From positions 34,958 to 98,957 of the forward strand of contig JACRMK010000046.1 of the NCBI GenBank assembly GCA_016235055.1: a stretch of 64,000 bases of DNA, given 5' to 3'. The notes beneath the pieces were generated by a model that saw nothing but the letters and a program-made list of their open reading frames with translations, searched no databases and was not told where the DNA came from. This stretch comes from Chloroflexota bacterium. Its GTDB lineage: Bacteria; Chloroflexota; Anaerolineae; JACRMK01. Below are positions 2,689 through 62,459 of the stretch, one piece after another. The position numbers and the translations under genes are program-made. Numbering within the stretch: the stretch's first letter is position 1; each line of letters opens with the position of its first letter.

Positions 2689-2776
2689 GTGTTATGTCCT
2701 CGATCGCGTCGTGATGAATTGCCGATCCGCGAATAACGCGAATCGACGATACTTCTTCAAGTAGAGCGCGGTCTCA

Positions 2777-2920
2777 TGGTTGTCATGCTGAGCGCGAAGG
2801 TCGAACTATTGGCCTATCGTGCGCTTCGCGCGCGAAGCGCCTGAAATGCAGCACTTCAGATGTCTCGCGCGAGCGACGAGCCAAAGGAAAGAAGTCTTGC
2901 CTTCGCGCTCAACATGACAA
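2777..2920. repeat. MITE-like element, family 1 (terminal inverted repeats GTTGTCATGYTGAGCGCGAAGG)
   Basis: 22-bp terminal inverted repeats with one mismatch flank about 100 bp containing internal hairpins; related copies at about 17279-17415 and 28809-28950. Confidence 0.6.
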
Positions 2921-2950
2921 CATGACAAATTGGGGCACGGCCAAGTCGAA

Positions 2951-3337
2951 TCAGTATGACCACCACGTTTCCGCCGCGCGAGGGCGCCGCGCATACCATT
3001 CGACGAAGCGCAGTTCGCGGCGGCCTTGCGCCGGGGTGATCAGAATGGCGGTCTTCCCGTAGCGCACGCGGATGCGCTTGCGCAGGGATTCCTCGTCCCG
3101 GTCATGATCGACGACCGCGCGCTGGTGAACTGCCACGAACTCGTCGGCATAGCGCAGCCGCTCGTCCGGTGGCAGCGAAGCCCACCACGCCGACTCCGCA
3201 TTCACCTTATGTCGCTGGGCCTCGAATCGATAGTGCCGAATCGCCGTTTCCACAAGACTCTCCGCGTCGACCCCTTCGGCCTGCGCGGCCGCGCGGATCT
3301 GCGACGCCAGCGGCTCGTGAACCACCAATTCACTCAT
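2951..3337 (-). CDS. Hypothetical protein, possible ribbon-helix-helix N-terminus, last gene of metallophosphoesterase-amidohydrolase operon
   Basis: 128-aa reading frame inside track ORF 2951..3781 beginning MSELVVHEPL...; AGGAGG Shine-Dalgarno 5-10 nt upstream of its ATG, start lies 12 nt after the amidohydrolase stop. Confidence 0.6.
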   Translation of the reverse strand: MSELVVHEPLASQIRAAAQAEGVDAESLVETAIRHYRFEAQRHKVNAESAWWASLPPDERLRYADEFVAVHQRAVVDHDRDEESLRKRIRVRYGKTAILITPAQGRRELRFVEWYARRPRAAETWWSY

Positions 3338-3348
3338 CCGACCTCCTG

Positions 3349-6355: not shown

Positions 6356-6523
6356 CCACGGCATGACGGCGTGACAGGATGACAGGCTGGCCGGGTGACA
6401 CGGTGACACGATGAAGAGATGACGGGATAACACGATGACAAGGGGCAGCTTGGGGCGCACTATGAGCGCAGATTCGCGTTATTCGCGGACAGGTTGTTTT
6501 TAAGAAGTCCGACGGTTTGACGG

Positions 6524-11941: not shown

Positions 11942-12192
11942 AGGTATATTCAGTTCTGGGGCGCAACCAATACGGAGCAAGAACATAGTAGCTCGTTATG
12001 TCCGCGTAGGGGCGCATGGCCATGCGCCCGCATCCAGAGGTGCTGCCCCCTGGATTCCCGCGGTGCTCTGCGGCCTTCATCCTGTGCCCGCGCCTGCGGC
12101 GCGGAGCGGGGCGAAGCCCCGCTGCACAGGACATCGCGCAGAGCGTTAACCGCCCGCTGGCCCGAAGCCAGCGGGAAACGCGCGGGAGTGAC
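11942..12192. repeat. Composite intergenic repeat, family 4 (GGTATATTCAGTTCTGGGGCGCAACC module plus GTAGGGGCGC hairpins)
   Basis: Modules recur at about 31255-31370 (inverted) and 55057-55220; several perfect short palindromes. Confidence 0.55.
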
Positions 12193-16957: not shown

Positions 16958-17278
16958 GAACTACCGCCTTTCTGGAATCTCAGAACTGCGGCCAGTATAG
17001 CGAGTACCGATGCGTCGTTCTATCCGATTCTTGCGGTTCAAACTGCCGCACAAGCAGGGGACGGCAAAAAGGAATCGTCCGCGCTAGAGCATCTTGCAGA
17101 AACATCGGGCACGCCATGCGGTTCGCCGGGTAGGGGCAGGTCTTTGACCTGCCCAGCGGACAGGCCAAAGGCCTGTCCCTACAGGCGGCGTGCAGCACCG
17201 TATCGGATCATGTCGCAAACCGCTATAAACGCTGGCGACGCTTATGCTTATCCGGGCAGAGCGTGTCCGCAGGAACAT

Positions 17279-17415
17279 GTCATGTTGAGCGCGGCGGCCA
17301 AGTCATCATTAGGCAGACAATCACGCACGCGAAGCATCTATGCCGAAGCATTTCAGGTGCTTCGCGCGCGTGACAGGCCTACCCACAGCGGCCTTGCCTT
17401 CGCGCTGCTCATGAC
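17279..17415. repeat. MITE-like element, family 1 copy
   Basis: Terminal inverted repeats GTCATGTTGAGCGCGG / CCTTCGCGCTGCTCATGAC; internal GAAGCATTTCAGGTGCTTC hairpin as in the copy at 2777. Confidence 0.55.
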
Positions 17416-17611
17416 GTTCGCGGTATTGCTCGTAGGGCCGACCCCGACCCGTTCGCCCCCTTTGGGGGGTTGCGGTCGCCCGGTGCTGGGCCGGGCAAGC
17501 GCTGCTCCTACACGGCTGTCATGCAACGGCGCATGCCCGCCGGGCATGGGGTTCTCGCAATGACGCTTTTGTCGCAGCGCCGCTTACTCTGCAAACCGCT
17601 TCAAAACAAAA

Positions 17612-21739: not shown

Positions 21740-21955
21740 CAGAGCACGCAAAGAGCGCAAAGAAAAGCTTTGTTGACCGTGAATAACGCGAATTGGCGCT
21801 AGTCGAACGCTAACCGCAGAGAACGCAGAGGAAAACAAGACCAACCGCAAAGCACGCAAAGAGCGCAAAGGAGAACCCTGCTTTCGATTGGCGTCGATTC
21901 GCGTTATTCGCGGATAGAGAGCTTTTCTTTGCGGTCTTTGCGCCCTTTGCGGTTC
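21740..21955. repeat. MITE-like element, family 2 (nested inverted repeats; inner GAATAACGCGAAT / ATTCGCGTTATTC)
   Basis: Outer inverted repeat CGCAAAGAGCGCAAAG / CTTTGCGCCCTTTGCG and inner CCGCGAATAACGCGAAT-type termini; related copy at 56831-56974 and solo ends near 2712, 6465, 24808. Confidence 0.6.
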
Positions 21956-24765: not shown

Positions 24766-24839
24766 AACTTTTCACCGCAGAGAGCGCAGCGAGAACCTTT
24801 GTATCCGCGAATAACGCGAATCGGCGCGAATAGAACAAC

Positions 24840-24995
24840 TGCGTCCCCCAATGAACGCAAAGAGCGCAGAGGTTACTCCCTGCGCTCTCGTCATCTCTTC
24901 ATCCAGTTATCTTGTCATCTCTTCATCCAGTCATCTTGTCATCTCTTCACCTTGTCACCTTGTCACCTTGTCATCTTGTCATCCCGTCATCTTTC
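24840..24995. repeat. Short tandem repeats (CTTGTCAYC units) next to solo family-2 repeat end
   Basis: TCATCTCTTCATCCAG... then CACCTTGTCACCTTGTCACCTTGTCATCTTGTCATCC; similar GTGACAGGATGACAGG tract in inverted orientation near 6380-6450. Confidence 0.55.
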
Positions 24996-25479
24996 AGATG
25001 ACCGGCTTCTCCTTGTCGGTCAGGTTGACGACGACGGCGCGGCTCGCCTTGACCAGGTCGGCCGGCGCAATCAGGATCTCCTCGCCCCACTGGCCGGTGC
25101 CGACGCCGAGCACGCTCTCAATCAGCAGTGACGCTTCGAGGAACGAGCGGAAGCCCGGCCTCTGCCAGTGAAACGGCGGGATCGAGCCGATCTCGTAGCC
25201 GGTCGTCGTTTTGACCGCTTCCGGGCTGGCGAGCTTGATGTTGCGCGAGTTGAGCACCTTCTTCAGGTGCCCGGAGATCGCGCTCTGGTCGCCGCCGAGC
25301 ATGATCAGTGCCCGCTCGCCGCGGTCGTTCTCGAAGATCAGCGTCTTGACCATCTGCCGCTCGTTGAAGCCGAGCGCGCGCGCCACCGAGGCCGCGCCTT
25401 TCTCGATGTCGGTCGGGAATGAGCGCCGCTCGTATGGAATATTCTGCTGGTCGAGGTAGTCGTGGGATGGCAGGTTCAT
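24994..25479 (-). CDS. ybaK: YbaK/ProX-type aminoacyl-tRNA deacylase (Cys-tRNA(Pro) editing domain)
   Basis: 161 aa from internal ATG with AGGAGA upstream; central G-rich loop and K...GG editing-domain pattern (MVKTLIFENDRGERALIMLGGD). Confidence 0.75.
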   Translation of the reverse strand: MNLPSHDYLDQQNIPYERRSFPTDIEKGAASVARALGFNERQMVKTLIFENDRGERALIMLGGDQSAISGHLKKVLNSRNIKLASPEAVKTTTGYEIGSIPPFHWQRPGFRSFLEASLLIESVLGVGTGQWGEEILIAPADLVKASRAVVVNLTDKEKPVI

Positions 25480-25587
25480 CGCGGTCTCCTGTGCCGGTTG
25501 GCGTAGTGCGCGTATTATAGCCGAACCGCATCCACGAAGGAATACAAAGGGGCACGAATAGACCGCCGACACACAGCAATCCCGACC

Positions 25588-25687
25588 GTCATGCCGGCAA
25601 GTAGTAAGCCGGCATCCACGACCACGGCACGCAAAAGCCCGTGACTCTTGGCCGTGTGGATTCCGGCCAAAATCACGCCGGAATGAC
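25588..25687. repeat. MITE-like element, family 3 (termini GTCATGCCGGCA ... GCCGGAATGAC)
   Basis: About 100 bp with 11-bp terminal inverted repeats and internal hairpin GCCGGCAAGTAGTAAGCCGGC; second copy 41470-41568. Confidence 0.6.
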
Positions 25688-25852
25688 AAATTGCCGATTG
25701 TTGCCGACTTTTAGCGCTTCTTGCCTGTTTGGTGCCCCTTCGTGCCGCTTCGTGGACAATGCTCCCGCGATTTCTGGTATACTTTCAAGGATACGGCCGC
25801 GCGCGGCGGCGCGCCAGCCGGCTGGCGCTGGTTACCCACGGAGGACGCGAAT

Positions 25853-27787: not shown

Positions 27788-28120
27788 ATGAGCACCCCCG
27801 TAATCGCCGAGCCGCCGTGCTTGGCTGAAGCGATTGAGCGCATCGTGCAGCAGTTTCACCCGCTGCGCATCATCCTGTTCGGCTCCTGGGCGCGCGGGGA
27901 CGCCCGCCCGGACAGCGACCTTGATTTGCTGGTGGTGATGCCGGAGGCGCAGAACAAGCGCGCTATGACAGTTCGCATAGGCAATTCGTTGAGTGATCTG
28001 CCGATCAGCAAAGATGTCGTGGTAACGACGCCAGCGGAGATCGTGGAGCACGGGCAGACTATCGGGCGGGTGCTCCAGCCGGCGCTGGCCGAAGGCAAAG
28101 TCGTCTATGAGCGCCGATGA
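27788..28120 (+). CDS. Nucleotidyltransferase (MNT/MntA-like antitoxin component)
   Basis: GSWARGD...DSDLDLLVV matches the GSx9-13Dx[DE] minimal nucleotidyltransferase motif; GGAGGAG upstream. Confidence 0.8.
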   Translation: MSTPVIAEPPCLAEAIERIVQQFHPLRIILFGSWARGDARPDSDLDLLVVMPEAQNKRAMTVRIGNSLSDLPISKDVVVTTPAEIVEHGQTIGRVLQPALAEGKVVYERR

Positions 28121-28508
28121 TGTAGGCACTTGGCTGGCGTATGCGCATTCCGACTTGGGGGCGGGTCGGTCACTCTTGCTCGGGCCTGAGCCTTTTTCAC
28201 GCCAGTCGTGTTTTTATGCACAACCGGCTGCGGAAAAGGCGCTAAAAGCTGTGCTGGTAGCGCATGGCATCAAAGTTCCGCACACGCATGACCTTGATCA
28301 TTTGCGTGAGATCATCCCGGGCGGGGCTTCGGTGAAAGTCGAATTCCCGCACCTCTATGCATTGTCGATCTGGGCCGTCGAGGCGCGCTATCCCGGCGAT
28401 CCGCAAGAGGTCACGGCCGATGAGGCACGCGCGGCGCTCGATCTGGCGGAACGAGTGCTGCGGGCGGTGGAGCGCGACTTGCGCGCCGGCGGCGCAGAGG
28501 CGTCGTAG
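28107..28508 (+). CDS. HEPN domain protein (toxin component), overlaps MNT gene by 14 nt
   Basis: 133 aa with HEPN-like helices (QQA/QPAAEKALKAVL); gene order MNT-HEPN with overlapping ends is the canonical arrangement. Confidence 0.75.
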   Translation: MSADDVGTWLAYAHSDLGAGRSLLLGPEPFSRQSCFYAQPAAEKALKAVLVAHGIKVPHTHDLDHLREIIPGGASVKVEFPHLYALSIWAVEARYPGDPQEVTADEARAALDLAERVLRAVERDLRAGGAEAS

Positions 28509-28753: not shown

Positions 28754-28787
28754 AGCCCCTTCGGGATTTCAAGACCCGAAGGGGCTT
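28754..28787 (+). terminator. Terminator hairpin (CCCTTCGGG family)
   Basis: AAGCCCCTTCGGG-atttcaa-GACCCGAAGGGGCTT. Confidence 0.55.
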
Positions 28788-28808
28788 CTGTTTCCGGCCA
28801 CCTCGGGC

Positions 28809-28950
28809 GGTCATCCTGAGCGCGAAAGCGGGGCGTATGTCCTTTGGCTCGTTAGGCGCGCGAAGGATCTGAACTGCCGCCTCTCAGATTCTTCGCGCGC
28901 GAGGCGTGTTGCACGCCATCGGTCTTGCCGCCGCGCTCCGAATGACAGCG
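28809..28950. repeat. MITE-like element, family 1 copy
   Basis: Termini GGTCATCCTGAGCGCGAAAG / CCGCGCTCCGAATGACAGCG with internal CGCGCGAAGG...CTTCGCGCGCG hairpin. Confidence 0.5.
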
Positions 28951-34754: not shown

Positions 34755-35606
34755 ATGGCAATCAAGACGGTCGGTGTTGTCGGCTGCGGTTTGATGGGGT
34801 CGGGTATTGTCGAAGTCTGCGCGAAGAGCGGCTACGACGTCATTGTAATGGAGATGAACGACGGGCTGTTGAAGCGCGGGCTGGAGCGCATCGATGCCAG
34901 CCTGGCCAAAGCGGTTGAGCGCAAGAAGCTGGACGCCGCCGCCCGCGACGGCATCCGGGCGCGCATCCGTGGCACCACCGGTTTCGCCGATTTCCGCGAC
35001 GCCGATTTCGTCGTCGAGGCGGCGATCGAGAACCTCGACGAGAAGAAGCAGATCTTCGCGCAGCTCGACACAGTCACCCGGCCGGACGCAACTCTGTCGT
35101 CGAACACGTCGTCGCTGTCGATCATCGACATGGCGTCGGCGACGAAGCGGCCGGCGCAGGTGCTCGGCATGCACTTCTTCAATCCGGTGCCGGTCATGCC
35201 GCTGCTCGAGATGGTGCGCTCGTTCCTGACGAGCGAGGCGACCTACCAGGCGGCGCGGGCTTTCGGCGAATCGCTCGGCAAGACCGTGGTCGTGGCGAAG
35301 GACAAGCCGGGCTTCATCGTCAACGCGTTGCTGATCCCGTACCTGCTCGACGCGATCCGCATGGTCGAAGAGGGCGCCGCGTCACGCGAGGATATCGACG
35401 CCGGCATTCATCTGGGGCTGAACCACCCGATGGGCCCGCTGACGCTGACGGACTTCGTGGGGCTGGACACGACGCTCTACGTGGCCGACGCGATGTTCGC
35501 GGAGACGAAGAACGCGCGTTACGCCGCGCCGACGCTGCTGCGCCGCATGGTCACGGCCGGGCACATGGGCCGCAAGAGCGGCAAGGGGTTCTACGAGTAT
35601 GAGTGA
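34755..35606 (+). CDS. hbd: 3-hydroxyacyl-CoA / 3-hydroxybutyryl-CoA dehydrogenase
   Basis: N-terminal VGVVGCGLMGSGI Rossmann motif; AAGGAGAA upstream of internal ATG; C-terminal dimerisation domain. Confidence 0.9.
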   Translation: MAIKTVGVVGCGLMGSGIVEVCAKSGYDVIVMEMNDGLLKRGLERIDASLAKAVERKKLDAAARDGIRARIRGTTGFADFRDADFVVEAAIENLDEKKQIFAQLDTVTRPDATLSSNTSSLSIIDMASATKRPAQVLGMHFFNPVPVMPLLEMVRSFLTSEATYQAARAFGESLGKTVVVAKDKPGFIVNALLIPYLLDAIRMVEEGAASREDIDAGIHLGLNHPMGPLTLTDFVGLDTTLYVADAMFAETKNARYAAPTLLRRMVTAGHMGRKSGKGFYEYE

Positions 35607-41253: not shown

Positions 41254-41469
41254 TAGAATCTCGGACCGACTAGCTAATGGAGTGCTACGGGGGTGTATTT
41301 ACCCGTGATCGTCGCGATCTGGGACACGGGCGTGCTCCCTTCCATAGCACGCTGCGCCGATGGTGCTGCCTCATTCGGGTAGACCGATAATAGGCTCGCG
41401 GGAAGCTAATGTCAAGCGAGTAAAAGGTAGGAGCGCACCTCAGTTTCGGGGTAGAGTTGTTGGCAACCC

Positions 41470-41568
41470 GTCATGCCGGCATGTAGTTAGCCGGCATCCA
41501 CGCCAGCATCTGGCGCGCATGCTGGCCCGTGTTACGCCGGCGTGGATTCCGGCCTTCGCCGGAATGAC
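41470..41568. repeat. MITE-like element, family 3 copy
   Basis: GTCATGCCGGCATGTAGTTAGCCGGCAT ... GCCGGAATGAC; close match to 25588-25687. Confidence 0.6.
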
Positions 41569-41792
41569 GGCTTGGATATGCGGTGCATCAGTTTCTGCAC
41601 TCACGCATCCGACGCTGCGGGATGTAATTCTTGCAACGACAGTCTCGCTGAGTGGTGGTTATGCGTATCGGACATCTCTGTTACTGAGTTGTCGAAATCT
41701 AGCATTCATCCGATATTCGCAATATACACTGTATTTCCGGGCGCTTCGTACTCATCGCATGCGCGCTATTTGCTGAAAAGTCAGTAAGCGTT

Positions 41793-42535: not shown

Positions 42536-43507
42536 TCAATAGTTCTTCCGCAAGTCCAGCCCCGCGTAGAGGCCGGCGACCTGCTCGGCATAGCCGTTGA
42601 ACGGCTGCGTCGTCCGCCGGCGCAATTCGCCGATGCGCCGCTCGCTGCCCTGCGACCAGCGCGGGTGATTGACCTCCGGATTCACATTAGCGTAGAAGCC
42701 ATATTCATTCGAGGCAATCGTGCTCCACATCGTCTTCGGCTGCGTGTCGGTTAACTCGATCTTGACGACCGCCTTGATCGACTTGAACCCGTACTTCCAC
42801 GGCACGACCAGCCGGATGCCGCCGCCGTTCGCGGCCGGTAGTTCGCCGCCGTACAGGCCGGTCGCCAGCAGCGTCAGGTCGTTCATCGCCTCGTCGATAC
42901 GCAGCCCTTCCTGGTACGGCCAGGGGTAGAACGGCGAGCGCTGGCCGGGGAAGTCGTCCGGCTTGAAGAGCGTCTCGAAGCGCACATATTTCGCGGCTGC
43001 CGTCGGTTCGACCGCCTTCAGCAGCTTCGCGAGCGGGAAGCCGACCCACGGGATGACCATGCTCCACGCTTCGACGCAGCGCAGGCGGTAGATGCGCTCC
43101 TCGGGCTGGAAGCGCTTGATCATCTCCTCGACGGCGTACTTGCCCGGCTTGCCTACCAGGCCCGACACCTGCACGTCCCACGGCGACGTCTTGAAGTTGG
43201 CGGCGCGCGGCGCAACGCCCTCTTTCTCTTCCGTGAACTCGTAGTAGTTGTTGTAGTGCGTGATGTCCTGGTACGACGTCGCCGGATCGCCCAGTTCGTC
43301 CTTGCGCGCGGACGCGCCCGGCTGGGCCGCAGGCGGCGCCGTGGCCGAAGGCGCCGGCTGCGCGTCGTTGCCTGCCAGCGGACCGCACGCCGCAAGTGCC
43401 ATGCTGCCCGCCACCACGCCGGTGGCCTTGATAAACTCGCGCCGCGAGAGGTACACCGCCTTCGGCGTGACCTCGGATTCCGCGATGCGCGGATAACGGC
43501 TCTTCAT
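42536..43507 (-). CDS. msrP: Protein-methionine-sulfoxide reductase catalytic subunit MsrP (YedY-like molybdopterin oxidoreductase)
   Basis: Twin-arginine signal (SRREFIK), sulfite-oxidase-fold motifs (ITHYNNYYEF, RLRCVEAW, GGGIRLVVPWKYGFKSIKAV). Confidence 0.9.
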   Translation of the reverse strand: MKSRYPRIAESEVTPKAVYLSRREFIKATGVVAGSMALAACGPLAGNDAQPAPSATAPPAAQPGASARKDELGDPATSYQDITHYNNYYEFTEEKEGVAPRAANFKTSPWDVQVSGLVGKPGKYAVEEMIKRFQPEERIYRLRCVEAWSMVIPWVGFPLAKLLKAVEPTAAAKYVRFETLFKPDDFPGQRSPFYPWPYQEGLRIDEAMNDLTLLATGLYGGELPAANGGGIRLVVPWKYGFKSIKAVVKIELTDTQPKTMWSTIASNEYGFYANVNPEVNHPRWSQGSERRIGELRRRTTQPFNGYAEQVAGLYAGLDLRKNY

Positions 43508-43531
43508 ACAGCTCTCCCTCCCTGGGTGTGT

Positions 43532-46259: not shown

Positions 46260-47024
46260 ATGCGCAAAGAGATAGCAACCGTCGTGTTGGGATTAACAAT
46301 GATACTCGCGGCTTGCGGGCCGACCCCCACACCCGCCGCCATGATGCAAGCCGCGATGCCAACGCCTGACGCAATGATGGCCAAGCCGACGCCCGATGCG
46401 ATGATGGCCAAGCCGACGCCCGATGCCATGATGGCCAAGCCGACGCCCGACGCCATGATGGCGCGCCCAACACCCGACGCGATGATGGCGCACCCAACAC
46501 CCGACGCCATGATGGCGCACCCAACACCCGACGCGATGATGGCGCATTCGACCCCGGATGCCATGATGCAAGCCCCGGCCTGGTTTGGCGCATCGCTGAC
46601 CGATGTGCGCACCGGTCAGACGTTCTCGCTCAACGGCTTCAAAGGCAAGGTGGTGCTGGTCGAAACGATGGCGCAATGGTGTCCGAGTTGCCGCACGCAG
46701 CAGACGCAGGTGAAAGACCTGCGCGCGATGTTTGCCGGGCGCGATGATCTGGTGACGATCGCGCTCGACGTGGATCCGAATGAGCAGGCCGCCGACCTGA
46801 AGAAATACGTGCAGGCCAACGGCTTCGAAGGGTTCTACGGCATCGCGCCCGCCGCCGTGGCGCGCGAGATCGGCAATCTTTATGGCGCGCAATTCCTGAA
46901 TCCGCCGTCCACGCCGATCCTGATTGTGGACCGCCACGGCCTGGCGCATCCCCTGCCGTTCGGCATCAAGAGCGCACGCGATCTGGCGAGCGCCATCGAG
47001 CCGTACCTCAAGGACGCCATGTAA
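46260..47024 (+). CDS. TlpA/ResA-like thioredoxin-fold lipoprotein with tandem nonapeptide linker
   Basis: Lipobox ILAAC; seven to eight repeats of A[KRH]PTPDAMM; redox motif WCPSC; AAGGAG upstream. Confidence 0.85.
   Translation: MRKEIATVVLGLTMILAACGPTPTPAAMMQAAMPTPDAMMAKPTPDAMMAKPTPDAMMAKPTPDAMMARPTPDAMMAHPTPDAMMAHPTPDAMMAHSTPDAMMQAPAWFGASLTDVRTGQTFSLNGFKGKVVLVETMAQWCPSCRTQQTQVKDLRAMFAGRDDLVTIALDVDPNEQAADLKKYVQANGFEGFYGIAPAAVAREIGNLYGAQFLNPPSTPILIVDRHGLAHPLPFGIKSARDLASAIEPYLKDAM
46341..46560 (+). repeat. 27-bp tandem repeat array inside the tlpA-like gene (coding, in frame)
   Basis: GCCAAGCCGACGCCCGATGCGATGATG-type unit repeated about 8 times with third-position and K/R/H variation. Confidence 0.8.
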
Positions 47025-48006: not shown

Positions 48007-48174
48007 TCAAAGCAAAACCGTATGCACGCGCCCGGGCGCGCCCGGCGGCCCGCAGGCCGCGATGGCCATACTGCCCGCCACGACGCCGGCGGCCATGATG
48101 AATGCGCGCCGCGAGAGGTACGCCGCCTTCGGCGTGACCTCGGATTCCGCGATGCGCGGATAGCGATTGTTCAT
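48007..48174 (-). pseudogene. Truncated duplicate of the msrP 5' end (RBS plus twin-arginine signal peptide only)
   Basis: About 110 bp near 48060-48175 is roughly 90% identical to msrP 43395-43505 including the GGGAGG ribosome-binding region; reads MNNRYPRIAESEVTPKAAYLSRRAFIMAAGVVAGSMAIAACGP then terminates; end coordinate approximate. Confidence 0.5.
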
Positions 48175-48338
48175 ATTTTTCCCTCCCCTGGATATACGCG
48201 CAGGCCGCCCTGGTCCATTGCCTCCGGCTGTGGCAGCGTGCTGTTCATCTTACCGCCCTTGCCCGAATTGCGTGAACGGCCGCCGGCAACAAAAAGCCCC
48301 GCGTAAGCGCGGGGCGTGTCTGGCTGACCCGCTGCGGG

Positions 48339-55056: not shown

Positions 55057-55220
55057 GGTGCATTTCACTTCTGGGGCGGCTAATGGGCCAACAAGCCGTC
55101 ATGCCGTTGCCCGCTGGCCCCTTGCCAGCGGGCGCTTGACGGTCAGCGGCGAGAAGCCGCTGACCAGCGCGGGCATCCAGAGGTGTTGCCCCTGGACTCC
55201 CGCTTTCGCGGGAGTGACGA
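55057..55220. repeat. Composite intergenic repeat, family 4 copy
   Basis: GGTGCATTTCACTTCTGGGGCGGC module; GCCCGCTGGCCCCTTGCCAGCGGGC and TCCCGCTTTCGCGGGA hairpins matching modules at 12030-12192. Confidence 0.55.
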
Positions 55221-56690: not shown

Positions 56691-56830
56691 TGCGGGTGCG
56701 TAGGGGCGCGTTGCACGCGTCCCGCAACGGGGCACATGCAATGTGCCCCTACGTTATCCGCAGGTGGCAGATGTCGTTCTGCGAAACGATCATCCGCTGC
56801 CCGCCCAGCACCTCCGCCGCATAGACTCAT

Positions 56831-56974
56831 CCACGAAGGGACACGAAGGAACACCAAGAACACCTTTATCCGCGAATAACGCGAATGAACGCGAATAGAG
56901 CCCACAAACTCCAGAACTGATTGGCCTCGATTCGCGTTATTCGCGGATCGCTTTTTATTTGTGTTCCTTCGTGG
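56831..56974. repeat. MITE-like element, family 2 copy (nested inverted repeats)
   Basis: Outer CCACGAAGGGACACGAAGGAACAC / GTGTTCCTTCGTGG; inner CCGCGAATAACGCGAAT / ATTCGCGTTATTCGCGG. Confidence 0.6.
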
Positions 56975-59186: not shown

Positions 59187-60785
59187 ATGACCACGTTGTA
59201 TGCCGAGAAGCAGGCTGCGTTCGATTGGATCGAAGCCAACCGAGCGCGCCTTTCCGGCTTCTGCGAGCAGATCTGGAACTATGCGGAGACGGCGTTCCGC
59301 GAGTACAAGTCCGCGCGCGCGTATTGCGATCTGCTGCGCGCCGAAGGGTTCACCGTCGAGGAAGGCTCCGCCGAGATGCCGACGGCGTTCGTCGCGACGT
59401 ACGGCAACGGCGGGCCGGTGCTGGCGACGTTCTCCGAATACGACGCCGTGCCGGAGAACTCGCAGGAGCGCGTGCCGTACCCGTCGCCGCGCGCCGGCCT
59501 GAACCGCTGGGCGGCCGGGCACACCGACCCGCACTCGTCGCTCGGCACGAGCGCGCTGATCGGTGCGCTGGCCGCCAAGGCGATGATGGTCAAATACGGG
59601 CTGCACGGCACGCTCAAGCTGTTCGGCGAGCCGGCGGAGAAGGTCTGCGGTTCCAAGCCGGTACACGCCGCCAAGGGGTATTACGACGGGCTCGACGCGG
59701 CGGTCGTCTATCACCCCAATGCCAGCAACTCCGTAGTGTGGGAAACACACAGCGGCTCGTACTGGAGCGCGGCGTTCGTCTTTGAGTGCATCGATCCGGA
59801 GGAGTGGATCGACCAGCGCCTGCTGCCGAACACGAGCACCTCGCACGCGGCGGCGCGCTGTCCGGCGGCGATCGACGCGCTGTGCCTGATGTATACGCTG
59901 ACCAAGTACAGCAAGGAGGCGATGTTCCCGCACACCGGCACCTGGACGCTCAACGAGAACATCATGGTTGGCGGGCAGTGCACCTCGGACAACCTGCCGC
60001 CGCGCCTGGCGGTCATCCAGTACTCGTGGCGCTCGCCGACGCTCGACATCCAGGAGCGCGTATTCCAGGTGCTGGCGCAGAACGCGCGGCAGGTCGCCGG
60101 CGCGACCGGCTGCGTCGCCTCGGTGCGCTGGATCACGAAGACGCGCGTCGGCCTGCCGAACCTGGCGATCTCCGACCTGGCCTACCGCAACCTGGAACTG
60201 GTCGGCGCGCCCCAGTTTGGAGACGAGGCGCGCACCTTCGCCCGCGCGATCCAGAAGAATCTCGGCTTCGAGCCGATGGACGACCCGTTCATTGCCGACA
60301 ACCAGACGCTGACGCCGCCGCCCGAACTGGAAGCGCGCGTGCGCCAGGGCCTGCCGCCGTGGCAGCTCAACTTCACGTCGGATGATTATGTGGAATACAC
60401 CTGGCACGCGCCGACCGTGCGGCTCTACACGGCGCGGCCGCGCCTGAAGGCGCCCAAGCCCGGTTACACGTACCCGGCATGGGTGAACAACGCGATGGGC
60501 GGCGTGCCGGCCTGCATCGATCCCGGCATGTTCGTCGCGGGCAAGACGATCGCCGCGACGATGCTCGATCTGCTCAAGTCCCCGGACGAGCTCGCCAAAG
60601 CGCAAGCCGAGTTCCGCGAGCGGACGGGTGGCGGCGTGGGCGGCAGCCAGTGGGTCGCGCCGCTGTTGGCGCGCGATTTCCCGCCGCCGGTCGAATTACG
60701 CTGGCCGGAGTACGTGCAGACGCCGCGCGGCGAGGAGTGGTGGGTGCCGACGGTGACGCACGAATCGGCCTACGTGAAGCTGTAG
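59187..60785 (+). CDS. M20-family amidohydrolase (aminobenzoyl-glutamate-utilization AbgB-like)
   Basis: 532 aa from internal ATG with AAGGAGG upstream; metal-ligand regions (GHTDPHS, EPAEK) typical of M20 peptidases. Confidence 0.8.
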   Translation: MTTLYAEKQAAFDWIEANRARLSGFCEQIWNYAETAFREYKSARAYCDLLRAEGFTVEEGSAEMPTAFVATYGNGGPVLATFSEYDAVPENSQERVPYPSPRAGLNRWAAGHTDPHSSLGTSALIGALAAKAMMVKYGLHGTLKLFGEPAEKVCGSKPVHAAKGYYDGLDAAVVYHPNASNSVVWETHSGSYWSAAFVFECIDPEEWIDQRLLPNTSTSHAAARCPAAIDALCLMYTLTKYSKEAMFPHTGTWTLNENIMVGGQCTSDNLPPRLAVIQYSWRSPTLDIQERVFQVLAQNARQVAGATGCVASVRWITKTRVGLPNLAISDLAYRNLELVGAPQFGDEARTFARAIQKNLGFEPMDDPFIADNQTLTPPPELEARVRQGLPPWQLNFTSDDYVEYTWHAPTVRLYTARPRLKAPKPGYTYPAWVNNAMGGVPACIDPGMFVAGKTIAATMLDLLKSPDELAKAQAEFRERTGGGVGGSQWVAPLLARDFPPPVELRWPEYVQTPRGEEWWVPTVTHESAYVKL

Positions 60786-60835
60786 CCAAACGCGACGCAC
60801 AAACGGAAGCGGGACAGGCATGATGCCTGTCCCGC
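60705..60835 (+). repeat. Direct repeat, left copy (3' end of M20 gene plus terminator)
   Basis: 131 bp; identical to 62092-62222 except 2 substitutions. Confidence 0.85.
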
Positions 60836-60841
60836 TTTTTT
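60811..60841 (+). terminator. Rho-independent terminator of M20 gene
   Basis: GGGACAGGC-atga-GCCTGTCCC followed by GCTTTTTTG. Confidence 0.7.
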
Positions 60842-62054: not shown

Positions 62055-62091
62055 ACACTTGATTCCATCGATACCGTGCGGTTTGCTCTGG

Positions 62092-62222
62092 CCGGAATAC
62101 GTGCAGACGCCGCGCGGCGAGGAGTGGTGGGTGCCGACGGTGACGCACGAATCGGCCTACGTGAAGCTGTAGCCAAACGCGACGCACAAACGGAAGCGGG
62201 ACAGGCATCATGCCTGTCCCGC
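62092..62222 (+). repeat. Direct repeat, right copy (duplicate of M20 3' end plus terminator hairpin)
   Basis: Same 131 bp as 60705-60835 with G-to-A at position 6 and loop ATGA-to-ATCA; followed by TTCATTTTC. Confidence 0.85.
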
Positions 62223-62459
62223 TTCATTTTCACTCGGGCGCGGTATTCTGTTCGGACCCTATCTGGCTGCGTCGGGATCGCGTAGGGGCGCACCGACGTG
62301 TGCGCCCGCCTGGCACGCTGCGGGCCGACACGCAGGTCGGCCCCTACCACCGGCGCTTTGCGGGTGGCTTTGCCCAATTCGCACGCATGTTCTAAGTTTG
62401 TGCTATAATAGCGACGGGCACAGAACATTAGTTCTCACTACCGCTATAGGAGAATCGCG

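Follow-up and report, generated by a model that had tools for sequence, protein, structure and literature searches.

Inverted dimers of hairpin units in a Chloroflexota contig: a probable long-loop variant of CGTC-tagged REPs and Ssn-related motifs

The stretch of 64,000 nt analyzed here (positions 34,958 to 98,957 of contig JACRMK010000046.1 from a Chloroflexota bacterium, hereafter the window) contains three copies of a palindromic element. The initial annotation had described them as elements similar to miniature inverted-repeat transposable elements (MITEs), with 22-bp terminal inverted repeats (TIRs) and an internal hairpin, presumably mobilized in trans and possibly acting as terminators or insulators. 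They were verified as a non-coding, multi-copy palindromic family, and each copy turned out to consist of two inverted hairpin units. We consider it probable that these units represent a long-loop, G·A-containing variant of the superfamily of CGTC-tagged repetitive extragenic palindromic sequences (REPs) and Ssn-related motifs (SRMs), the partner of which would be an Ssn single-stranded DNA (ssDNA) nuclease encoded outside the window.

Architecture of the three 137-nt elements

All three copies are present close to the positions at which they had been annotated, and their exact limits and parts are as follows:

2782-2918: copy 1, a 137-nt inverted dimer
2782-2796: head of the left half of copy 1, GTCATGCTGAGCGCG, followed by the arm (2797-2829) and the center-left motif GCGCGAAGCGCC
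2842-2858: 17-nt spacer in the middle of copy 1
2904-2918: head of the right half of copy 1, CGCGCTCAACATGAC, preceded by the center-right motif GATGTCTCGCGC and the arm (2871-2903)
2919-2926: surplus 8-nt head copy beyond the right end of copy 1, AACATGAC; a degenerate one lies beyond the left end
17279-17415: copy 2, an inverted dimer; left unit intact, TGTC-AT-GTT-GAGCGCG ... ACGCGAAGCATC; right unit partly degenerate
28810-28946: copy 3, an inverted dimer; both units intact, GTC-AT-CCT-GAGCGCG ... GCGCGAAGGATC, the inverted partner with ATTC/GAAT

Each of the three copies is 137 nt long, and they can be aligned with one another without gaps. They share a segmentation into blocks of 15, 33, 12, 17, 12, 33, and 15 nt, with conserved ends and center and diverged arms. 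The pairwise identities are 58–69% for the full elements and 33–58% for the arms alone. When the window was searched with a profile built from the three copies and four foreign copies, only the three copies matched (E-values of 1e-30 to 1e-34), and the next match had an E-value of 0.2. The left-end motif of the initial annotation was recovered, with GTCATGCTGAGCGCG in copy 1 and GTCATGTTGAGCGCG and GTCATCCTGAGCGCG at the other left ends. Allowing up to two mismatches, the 15-mer end motif GTCATSYTGAGCGCG occurred seven times in the window, compared to 1.9 ± 1.5 times in shuffled sequences, and none of 100 shuffles reached seven. The TIRs are genuine, but they are less perfect than annotated, and the length of 22 bp is overstated for copies 2 and 3: the numbers of matching positions in copies 1, 2, and 3 are 18, 14, and 14 over 19 nt, and 18, 16, and 15 over 22 nt. 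The annotated internal palindrome, GAAG...CTTC, was found in all three copies and is imperfect, 28–36 of the 45 central positions being self-complementary.

Each half of an element starts with the end motif GTCAT-NNN-GAGCGCG, continues with the 33-nt arm and closes with GCGCGAAG-N'N'N'-ATC; after the 17-nt spacer, the mirror image follows. One short motif is present four times per element, in alternating orientation. The two hairpin units are arranged tail to tail with their heads pointing outwards, and it is these outward heads that give rise to the apparent TIRs. The consensus of the unit is (C/T)GTC-AT-NNN-GAGCGCG / 33-nt arm / GCGCGAAG-N'N'N'-AT-C. Its stem consists of five Watson-Crick pairs, a tandem G·A/A·G mismatch and four G-C pairs (GCGC), and the arm forms the loop. 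The stem opens with an A-T and a T-A pair, followed by three covarying pairs, and a C follows the closing A-T/T-A pairs. The tetranucleotides at the six ends are TGTC, TGTC, TGTC, CGTC, GGTC, and TGTC.

An alternative fold is also possible, in which ends pair with ends and the center pairs with the center, yielding a single long imperfect hairpin of 137 nt. Its minimum free energy is -69 to -81 kcal/mol; when the two folds were compared, the values were -68 to -78 kcal/mol for the long hairpin and about -37 to -48 kcal/mol for two separate hairpins. The z-scores of folding are -6.5 to -8.2 for copies 1 and 2, and -2.9 to -3.9 for copy 3. The 33-nt arms are fixed in length and free in sequence. 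Pairing between the two arms is seen in copies 1 and 2 but is missing from copy 3 and from the foreign copies L147 and L139, and it is not a conserved feature. As possible guides or spacers, the arms matched nothing else in the window apart from 13 nt that copies 1 and 3 have in common.

Genomic context and relatives in other genomes

In agreement with the initial annotation, all three copies are intergenic, i.e., they lie outside the open reading frames (ORFs) that are backed by third-position GC content and Pfam matches. Their contexts are as follows:

Copy 1 (all features on the minus strand): 33 nt past the stop of a 128-aa ORF and 94 nt before a HAD phosphatase gene
Copy 2: in a 711-bp spacer from the terminator-like site of a YkuD gene (17645-17610, minus strand) to the start of a luciferase-like gene (16957)
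Copy 3: between a ThiS-like gene (stop 28745) and a convergent DUF92 gene (stop 29000); a hairpin (28757-28790) adjoins

All copies are situated downstream of a gene, two in unidirectional contexts and one in a convergent context, and copy 2 is surrounded by a cluster of other palindromic repeats. The hairpin next to copy 2 is the terminator-like site returned by a terminator scan, whereas the hairpin next to copy 3 was read by eye.

The presence of the elements differs between related genomes, and the sites of copies 1 and 3 are empty in relatives at 75–82% identity. Copy 1 is part of a 660-bp block (2689-3348), together with the 128-aa ORF and another repeat, which fills precisely the space from the amidohydrolase stop to the HAD start. 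The whole block is absent in three relatives (HAD proteins 76–82% identical), in which 3 nt separate this stop from this start. The spacer with copy 3 has a length of 254 bp, versus 90 bp with the hairpin only in a 75% relative (L165), and a 79% relative (L166) has a different GTCAT-TTC-GAG unit at this site. The reverse case was also found: in L166, the spacer that separates the sortase gene from the next one contains a degenerate family member, while the respective spacer is 40–51 bp long and free of an element in the window and in another relative. These filled and empty orthologous sites indicate that copies have been gained or lost over evolutionary time and that the family turns over between lineages. 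The flanks in the relatives are too diverged for the exact junctions to be read. Within the same strain, copy 3 is unchanged in contigs from two sequencing runs, and strain-level polymorphism was not seen. Short-read contigs of the strain stop within copy 1 and near the repeat cluster at copy 2, as is expected of multi-copy DNA.

Two neighboring features were observed in addition. The 128-aa ORF of the block (2954-3337, minus strand) has its own AGGAGG ribosome-binding site and a weak C-terminal match to DUF5678 (E-value of 2.9e-4, under the Pfam cut-off). Just upstream of the ThiS-like gene and copy 3, a nucleotidyltransferase gene (PF01909) and a HEPN gene (PF05168) form a pair (27788-28508) that looks like a toxin-antitoxin-type module.

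Family members were also found in other genomes and in metagenomes, showing that the repeat is not confined to the window. When one genome per species was scanned for the left half (GTCATNNTGAGCGCG, 28–38 nt, GCGCGAAG), at least 120 loci were obtained. Among the matches listed, Longimicrobium metagenome-assembled genomes (MAGs) with versions of about 174 nt predominate; other listed matches stem from MAGs labelled Anaerolineales, Thermoflexales, KSB1, Acidobacteriota, Saprospiraceae, Caldithrix, Latescibacterota, and Eremiobacterota. The unit type spans MAGs labelled as at least eight phyla, including Gemmatimonadota (Longimicrobium) and Chloroflexota. Of the matches listed, 89 carry the full ...AAG-N-AT signature, and in all 89, position 6 of the head is complementary to its partner after GCGCGAAG. 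All four types of pairs occur in this set (69 C-G, 10 T-A, 9 G-C, and 1 A-T), whereas the listed matches without the signature, which are mostly coding, do not follow the position-6 complementarity rule.

A scan of metagenomes that required both ends resulted in 39 loci. The near relatives among them are L126 and L147, and the latter shares 72% identity with copy 1; it is the closest foreign copy and lies at a non-orthologous locus. The metagenome set also holds low-GC versions, short units with abutting halves and tandem arrays of 23–25-nt head fragments, and short-loop forms of the same unit were found in L004, L137, and L160. The base that precedes GTCAT is C or T at five of the six window ends, at 88 of 89 ends of the listed genome set and at 63 of 72 ends of the metagenome set. 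The first flanking bases are usually complementary, and some copies are nested within other palindromes.

Two side observations concern these relatives. The Longimicrobium versions (e.g., L121:6858-7031 and L100:3345-3519) have one CGCG-type end and one GGCC-type end, and sequence is conserved beyond both ends, e.g., GGTGGCTTGGGTGCGGCATGCACAGTCAATC, so that they form part of a larger composite repeat. At L159:5480-5800, L125:992-1278, and L004:3173-3290, tandem arrays of 23–38-nt GTCAT-NNN-GAG units precede a complete element, which suggests repeated duplication or insertion at the head.

Several searches gave negative results. A BLAST search of copy 1 against plasmids yielded short chance matches only, and a literature search for the raw motifs returned only primer coincidences. 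The Rfam covariance models include no family for the elements, and only a tRNA attained a gathering score in the window; the best matches on copy 1 were miRNA-precursor models far under threshold, and permissive thresholds did not yield a family either.

The window harbors further repeats that differ from the 137-nt elements:

17130-17182, 56700-56752, 62282-62347, and 12006-12032: canonical GTAG-tagged REPs (GTAGGGGC...), three of which are inverted doublets
17432-17511: long GTAGG...CCTAC palindrome
2709-2756, 6466-6501, 21759-21806, 21891-21926, 24787-24834, 56852-56899, and 56924-56959: dispersed family with the core (A)TCCGCGAATAACGCGAATC, in both orientations; one copy adjoins copy 1
24862-24997: 8-bp tandem array (TCTTGTCA / TCTCTTCA variants) in a spacer
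46326-46595: 27-nt tandem repeat inside the ORF 46260-47024
60687-60837 and 62074-62224: direct repeat pair, 151 nt, 95% identical
43375-43508 and 48042-48175: direct repeat pair, 134 nt, 87% identical

The proposed link to Ssn nucleases and the rival explanations

CGTC-tagged REPs were characterized by Di Nocera, De Gregorio & Rocco 2013 (BMC Genomics 14:522). They have an unpaired CGTC head, which can be changed to TGTC (or CCTC), stems of 8–9 bp that start with A-T pairs, loops of 4–5 nt and a C-rich unpaired 3-nt tail with the consensus CCA. Most of them form inverted dimers with 20–100-bp spacers that can fold as one larger hairpin. They are sited between unidirectional or convergent ORFs, a transposase is not linked to them, and no species was found with a tyrosine transposase flanked by CGTC repeats. 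The superfamily includes dRS3/NTS of Neisseria and RPE-4/RPE-6 of Rickettsia (BMC Genomics 14:522), and its members are now called SRMs. The supplement of the same study contains the intragenic peptides VIPAKAGI and VIAGLDPAIH...RVKPAHD, which correspond to GTCAT...ATGAC; the translations start with VI... (GTCAT) and end with ...HD, MT, or ND (ATGAC). A Neisseria region with CGTCATTCCCACGCAAGCGGGAATcta units confirmed the common frame GTC-AT...AT-C, whereas no canonical CGTC repeats were found in the first 50 kb of S. meliloti pSymB. The tail of the window elements has the conserved first C and reads CTG or CTA instead of the consensus CCA.

The enzymatic partner of these motifs is known from Neisseria, where SsnA, a small GIY-YIG protein, binds and cuts the NTS (CGTCATTCCCGCGMAVGCGGGAATCYRG, which contains dRS3) (Nat Commun 2025;16:2388, PMC11893778). 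According to the same study, SsnA acts on ssDNA only, not on double-stranded DNA or RNA, and in one orientation only. Binding depends critically on the C that directly follows the palindrome, and cleavage on the 3 nt that precede it; the identity of the loop is dispensable. The ssnA gene is flanked by its own repeats (NTS-ssnA-NTS), there are thousands of cd10448 homologues with their own SRMs, and 71% of the ssn homologue regions carry SRMs; binding and cutting were demonstrated for the Neisseria and Wolbachia pairs only (PMC11893778).

The published SRM pattern (PMC11893778), HGTCWYN(0-2)YYVSBRHN(0-5)WNVSBRGN(0-2)RNCYNB, which allows a loop of 0–5 nt, matched the window five times, compared to 0.43 times in shuffled sequences. 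Canonical members and a possible relative are present at the following sites:

25587-25688: canonical CGTC-tagged REP/SRM dimer of a different family, cGTCATGCCGGC..GCCGGCATCCAC, 36-nt spacer, GTGGATTCCGGC..GCCGGAATGACa; both units match the pattern
41469-41569: second canonical CGTC-tagged REP/SRM dimer of a different family, heads outwards, 40-nt spacer
55192-55219, minus strand: lone canonical SRM unit, CGTCACTCCCGCGAAAGCGGGAGTCCAG, matching the pattern
17518-17564: short palindrome of 47 nt (GTCAT...ATGAC) beside copy 2, tGTCATGCAACGGCGCATGCCCG/CGGGCATGGGGTTCTCGCAATGACg; it is probably a degenerate relative

The canonical dimers of the window do end with CCA.

GIY-YIG genes were searched for with phmmer in all ORFs of the window and the related loci, with GIY-YIG seed sequences that served as a lead only. 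It gave a single match, a 95-aa ORF in a Thermoflexales (Chloroflexota) MAG (L058:249-536, minus strand). The protein matches PF01541 (E-value of 1e-15), has no model in NCBIfam and is 49% identical over its length (E-value of 4e-29) to a protein of Neisseria gonorrhoeae, the gene for which sits among 13 NTS repeats. Directly upstream of the L058 ORF are GTCATTCTGAGCGCG, a 33-nt arm and GCGCGAAGAATC, and then a central hairpin and a short unit in inverted orientation; GTCATGCTGAGCGGAGCGAAGCATC units are located downstream. The closest plasmid homologue (72.8%) is encoded on Planktothrix agardhii p1, where the gene lies between TGTCATTCTGAGTGAAACGAAGAATC ... GATCCTTC...CAGGATGACA dimers that have the same layout, with tandem head arrays in addition. 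In Spirosoma, the gene for a homologue is preceded by a TGTCATCCCGAG dimer and followed by a TGTCATCC..GGATGACA palindrome. The adjacency in these three cases suggests that the GAG...GAAG unit type travels with a subclade of Ssn nucleases. The spatial association of repeats and cd10448-type ssn genes was seen for the repeat type in relatives, not in the window. As a side observation, the Planktothrix gene and its repeats (L175, 18147-19822) lie between an MmeI-type restriction-modification gene and DISARM drmA, and the locus is within a defense-gene neighborhood.

The elements encode nothing and would, therefore, depend on a protein acting in trans, as the initial annotation had proposed. The cognate protein would most likely be a GIY-YIG ssDNA nuclease rather than the transposase of an insertion sequence (IS). 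We infer that such an Ssn protein may be encoded elsewhere in this genome, may act on these units and may have a role in their spread. When the DNA becomes single-stranded during replication or repair, or as incoming DNA, each unit would fold, the small site-specific endonuclease would bind the folded unit, and it would cut just upstream of the GTC head. The leading idea for the multiplication of the repeats is nuclease-dependent copying, because an ssn gene with its own repeats on either side is reminiscent of an IS or a REPtron.

Several observations weigh against this assignment. None of the three 137-nt elements matches the SRM pattern, even when the loop is relaxed to 45 nt; this failure is attributed to the G·A mismatches in the stem and the 33-nt loop. 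No ssn or other GIY-YIG gene was detected in the 64-kb window by the phmmer screen of all ORFs. The full GTC-AT...AT-C frame is intact in only four of the six units (right in copy 1, left in copy 2, both in copy 3), the remaining two being degenerate. For the long-loop subtype, the link to ssn consists of one Chloroflexota locus and one cyanobacterial plasmid. Finally, the central pairing and the long-hairpin fold could point to a role in duplex DNA or RNA.

The other explanations can be judged against the same evidence. The G+C content of the window, 65%, is all that speaks for a chance likeness of GC-rich intergenic sequence, an explanation that is already refuted by profile E-values of at most 1e-30, by the shuffles that never reached the observed motif count, and by the identical architecture in many other genomes. 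Also at odds with low-complexity sequence are the fixed segmentation and the conservation of ends and center next to diverged arms. A classical MITE, i.e., a deletion derivative of an IS that is moved in trans by a DDE transposase binding TIRs of about 19 bp, would have the size of 137 bp, the TIRs and the lack of coding capacity, and would account for dispersed intergenic copies that vary in presence among relatives. Nevertheless, this part of the initial annotation was not supported, and we regard it as very improbable. Target-site duplications were absent from all three copies, although offsets were tried, and in 105 relatives, direct repeats of 2–10 bp were no more frequent than expected by chance, except where nested arrays have palindromic flanks. 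Neither the window nor about 1.3 Mb of related loci yielded a transposase enclosed by matching ends. Only two pairs of ends are more than 1 kb apart, and both enclose non-transposase ORFs, one of them a DUF4344 putative metallopeptidase. The block-wise conservation and the fixed length at 58–69% identity are unlike a recent MITE burst, and the copies are old and diverged. Furthermore, the internal motif is the inverted end motif, and single units and tandem head arrays occur without a second end.

Movement by a Y1 (HUH) REP-associated tyrosine transposase (RAYT), as in GTAG-tagged REPs, would make the elements REPINs. This would agree with the inverted doublet, its perfectly conserved spacing with a less conserved spacer, the hairpin fold and the lack of duplications; moreover, the GTAG-tagged REP doublets in the window suggest that the genome also encodes a RAYT. 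We nevertheless find this explanation improbable, because the head is (C/T)GTC and not GT[AG]G, and because Di Nocera et al. did not encounter CGTC repeats around a tyrosine transposase in any species. A phmmer search with Y1 sequences detected no Y1 gene in the window or the other loci except L023, and this sole gene near any relative is flanked by a different hairpin family. The L023 locus (L023:5150-6300, Sulfotelmatobacter MAG) contains a Y1 transposase (PF01797) between GGCACGAGTGAACTCGTGCCCTTCCCGA hairpins and is similar to the TnpA-Y1 REPtron-like loci assigned to 'class 3' by Quentin et al. 2018; GTCATCCTGAGCG units are found elsewhere in the locus, and a homologue search with its Y1 protein retrieved close acidobacterial relatives only. 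Alternatively, the repeats might be kept for a primary role at the RNA level, as transcribed hairpins that stabilize or insulate neighboring mRNAs or end transcription. The hairpins are very stable, and all three copies follow a gene in a unidirectional or convergent setting, as has been reported for REPs. However, the annotated terminator function did not hold up, as no copy is followed by a T-tract, the terminator scan flagged none of the three, and separate hairpins are present beside copies 2 and 3. The element is nearly symmetric, which implies that it has no strand preference, it has no Rfam match, and SsnA is inactive on RNA. In addition, the whole block with copy 1 is missing in three relatives in which the two genes abut, so that it is dispensable there. 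A primary role in RNA is, therefore, quite unlikely; effects at this level are possible but unsupported, and they would not exclude that the units belong to the CGTC-tagged REP/SRM superfamily.

Meaning and comparison with known systems

A bolder proposal, which we regard as unlikely, is that the long-loop dimers are a distinct and still active type of miniature mobile DNA that is copied via Ssn-type GIY-YIG cleavage. The four-fold motif, the conserved tandem G·A mismatch and the fixed 33-nt arms would then form the structure for recognition and processing, and the multi-phylum spread and the covariation would reflect horizontally moving, co-evolving pairs of nuclease and repeat. If true, this would add a third enzymatic route to the DDE transposases of MITEs and the HUH tyrosine transposases of REPINs.

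MITE-like elements in high-GC environmental genomes can be CGTC-tagged/Ssn-related hairpin repeats, and annotators should look for a small GIY-YIG gene instead of a transposase. As the structural variant with G·A mismatches and a 33-nt loop escapes the published motif, censuses may undercount the system. The variant units are ready substrates for studying the loop and stem tolerance of Ssn nucleases, which is relevant to their proposed use as ssDNA tools. In this genome, the elements are markers of spacers in which DNA is gained and lost, and they interrupt short-read assemblies.

In comparison with known systems, the elements share with MITEs (e.g., Correia/NEMIS, RUP, Nezha) the size, the TIRs, the non-coding nature and the many intergenic copies. 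In contrast to these, they have neither a target-site duplication nor a matching IS, they repeat the end motif internally, and they are conserved block-wise and not uniformly. Similarly to REPINs and RAYTs (Bertels & Rainey 2011, PLoS Genet 7:e1002132), they are inverted hairpin doublets with strict spacing and a more variable spacer; duplications are absent, they would depend in trans on a single-copy enzyme, and singlets and clusters occur beside doublets. Unlike REPINs, they lack a GT[AG]G head, the enzyme associated with them is apparently a GIY-YIG nuclease instead of a Y1 HUH transposase, and excision intermediates are not known for elements of this type.

The resemblance to NTS/SRMs and SsnA includes the GTC head, the palindrome and the C just after it, and, as in NTS-ssnA-NTS, repeats flank an ssn homologue in the Chloroflexota MAG and on the Planktothrix plasmid. 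The differences are that the 137-nt elements fail the pattern, that the window is devoid of an ssn gene, and that the organism is not known to be naturally transformable. With the CGTC-tagged REPs, the elements have in common the unpaired (C/T)GTC head, A-T and T-A as the first pairs of the stem, the C that follows the stem, the organization of all three as inverted dimers foldable as one hairpin, and the unidirectional or convergent siting with no transposase nearby. They are set apart from these REPs by the unit stem of five Watson-Crick pairs, a tandem G·A and four G-C pairs, by the loop of 33 nt, and by the 12-nt center motifs, which also pair with each other.

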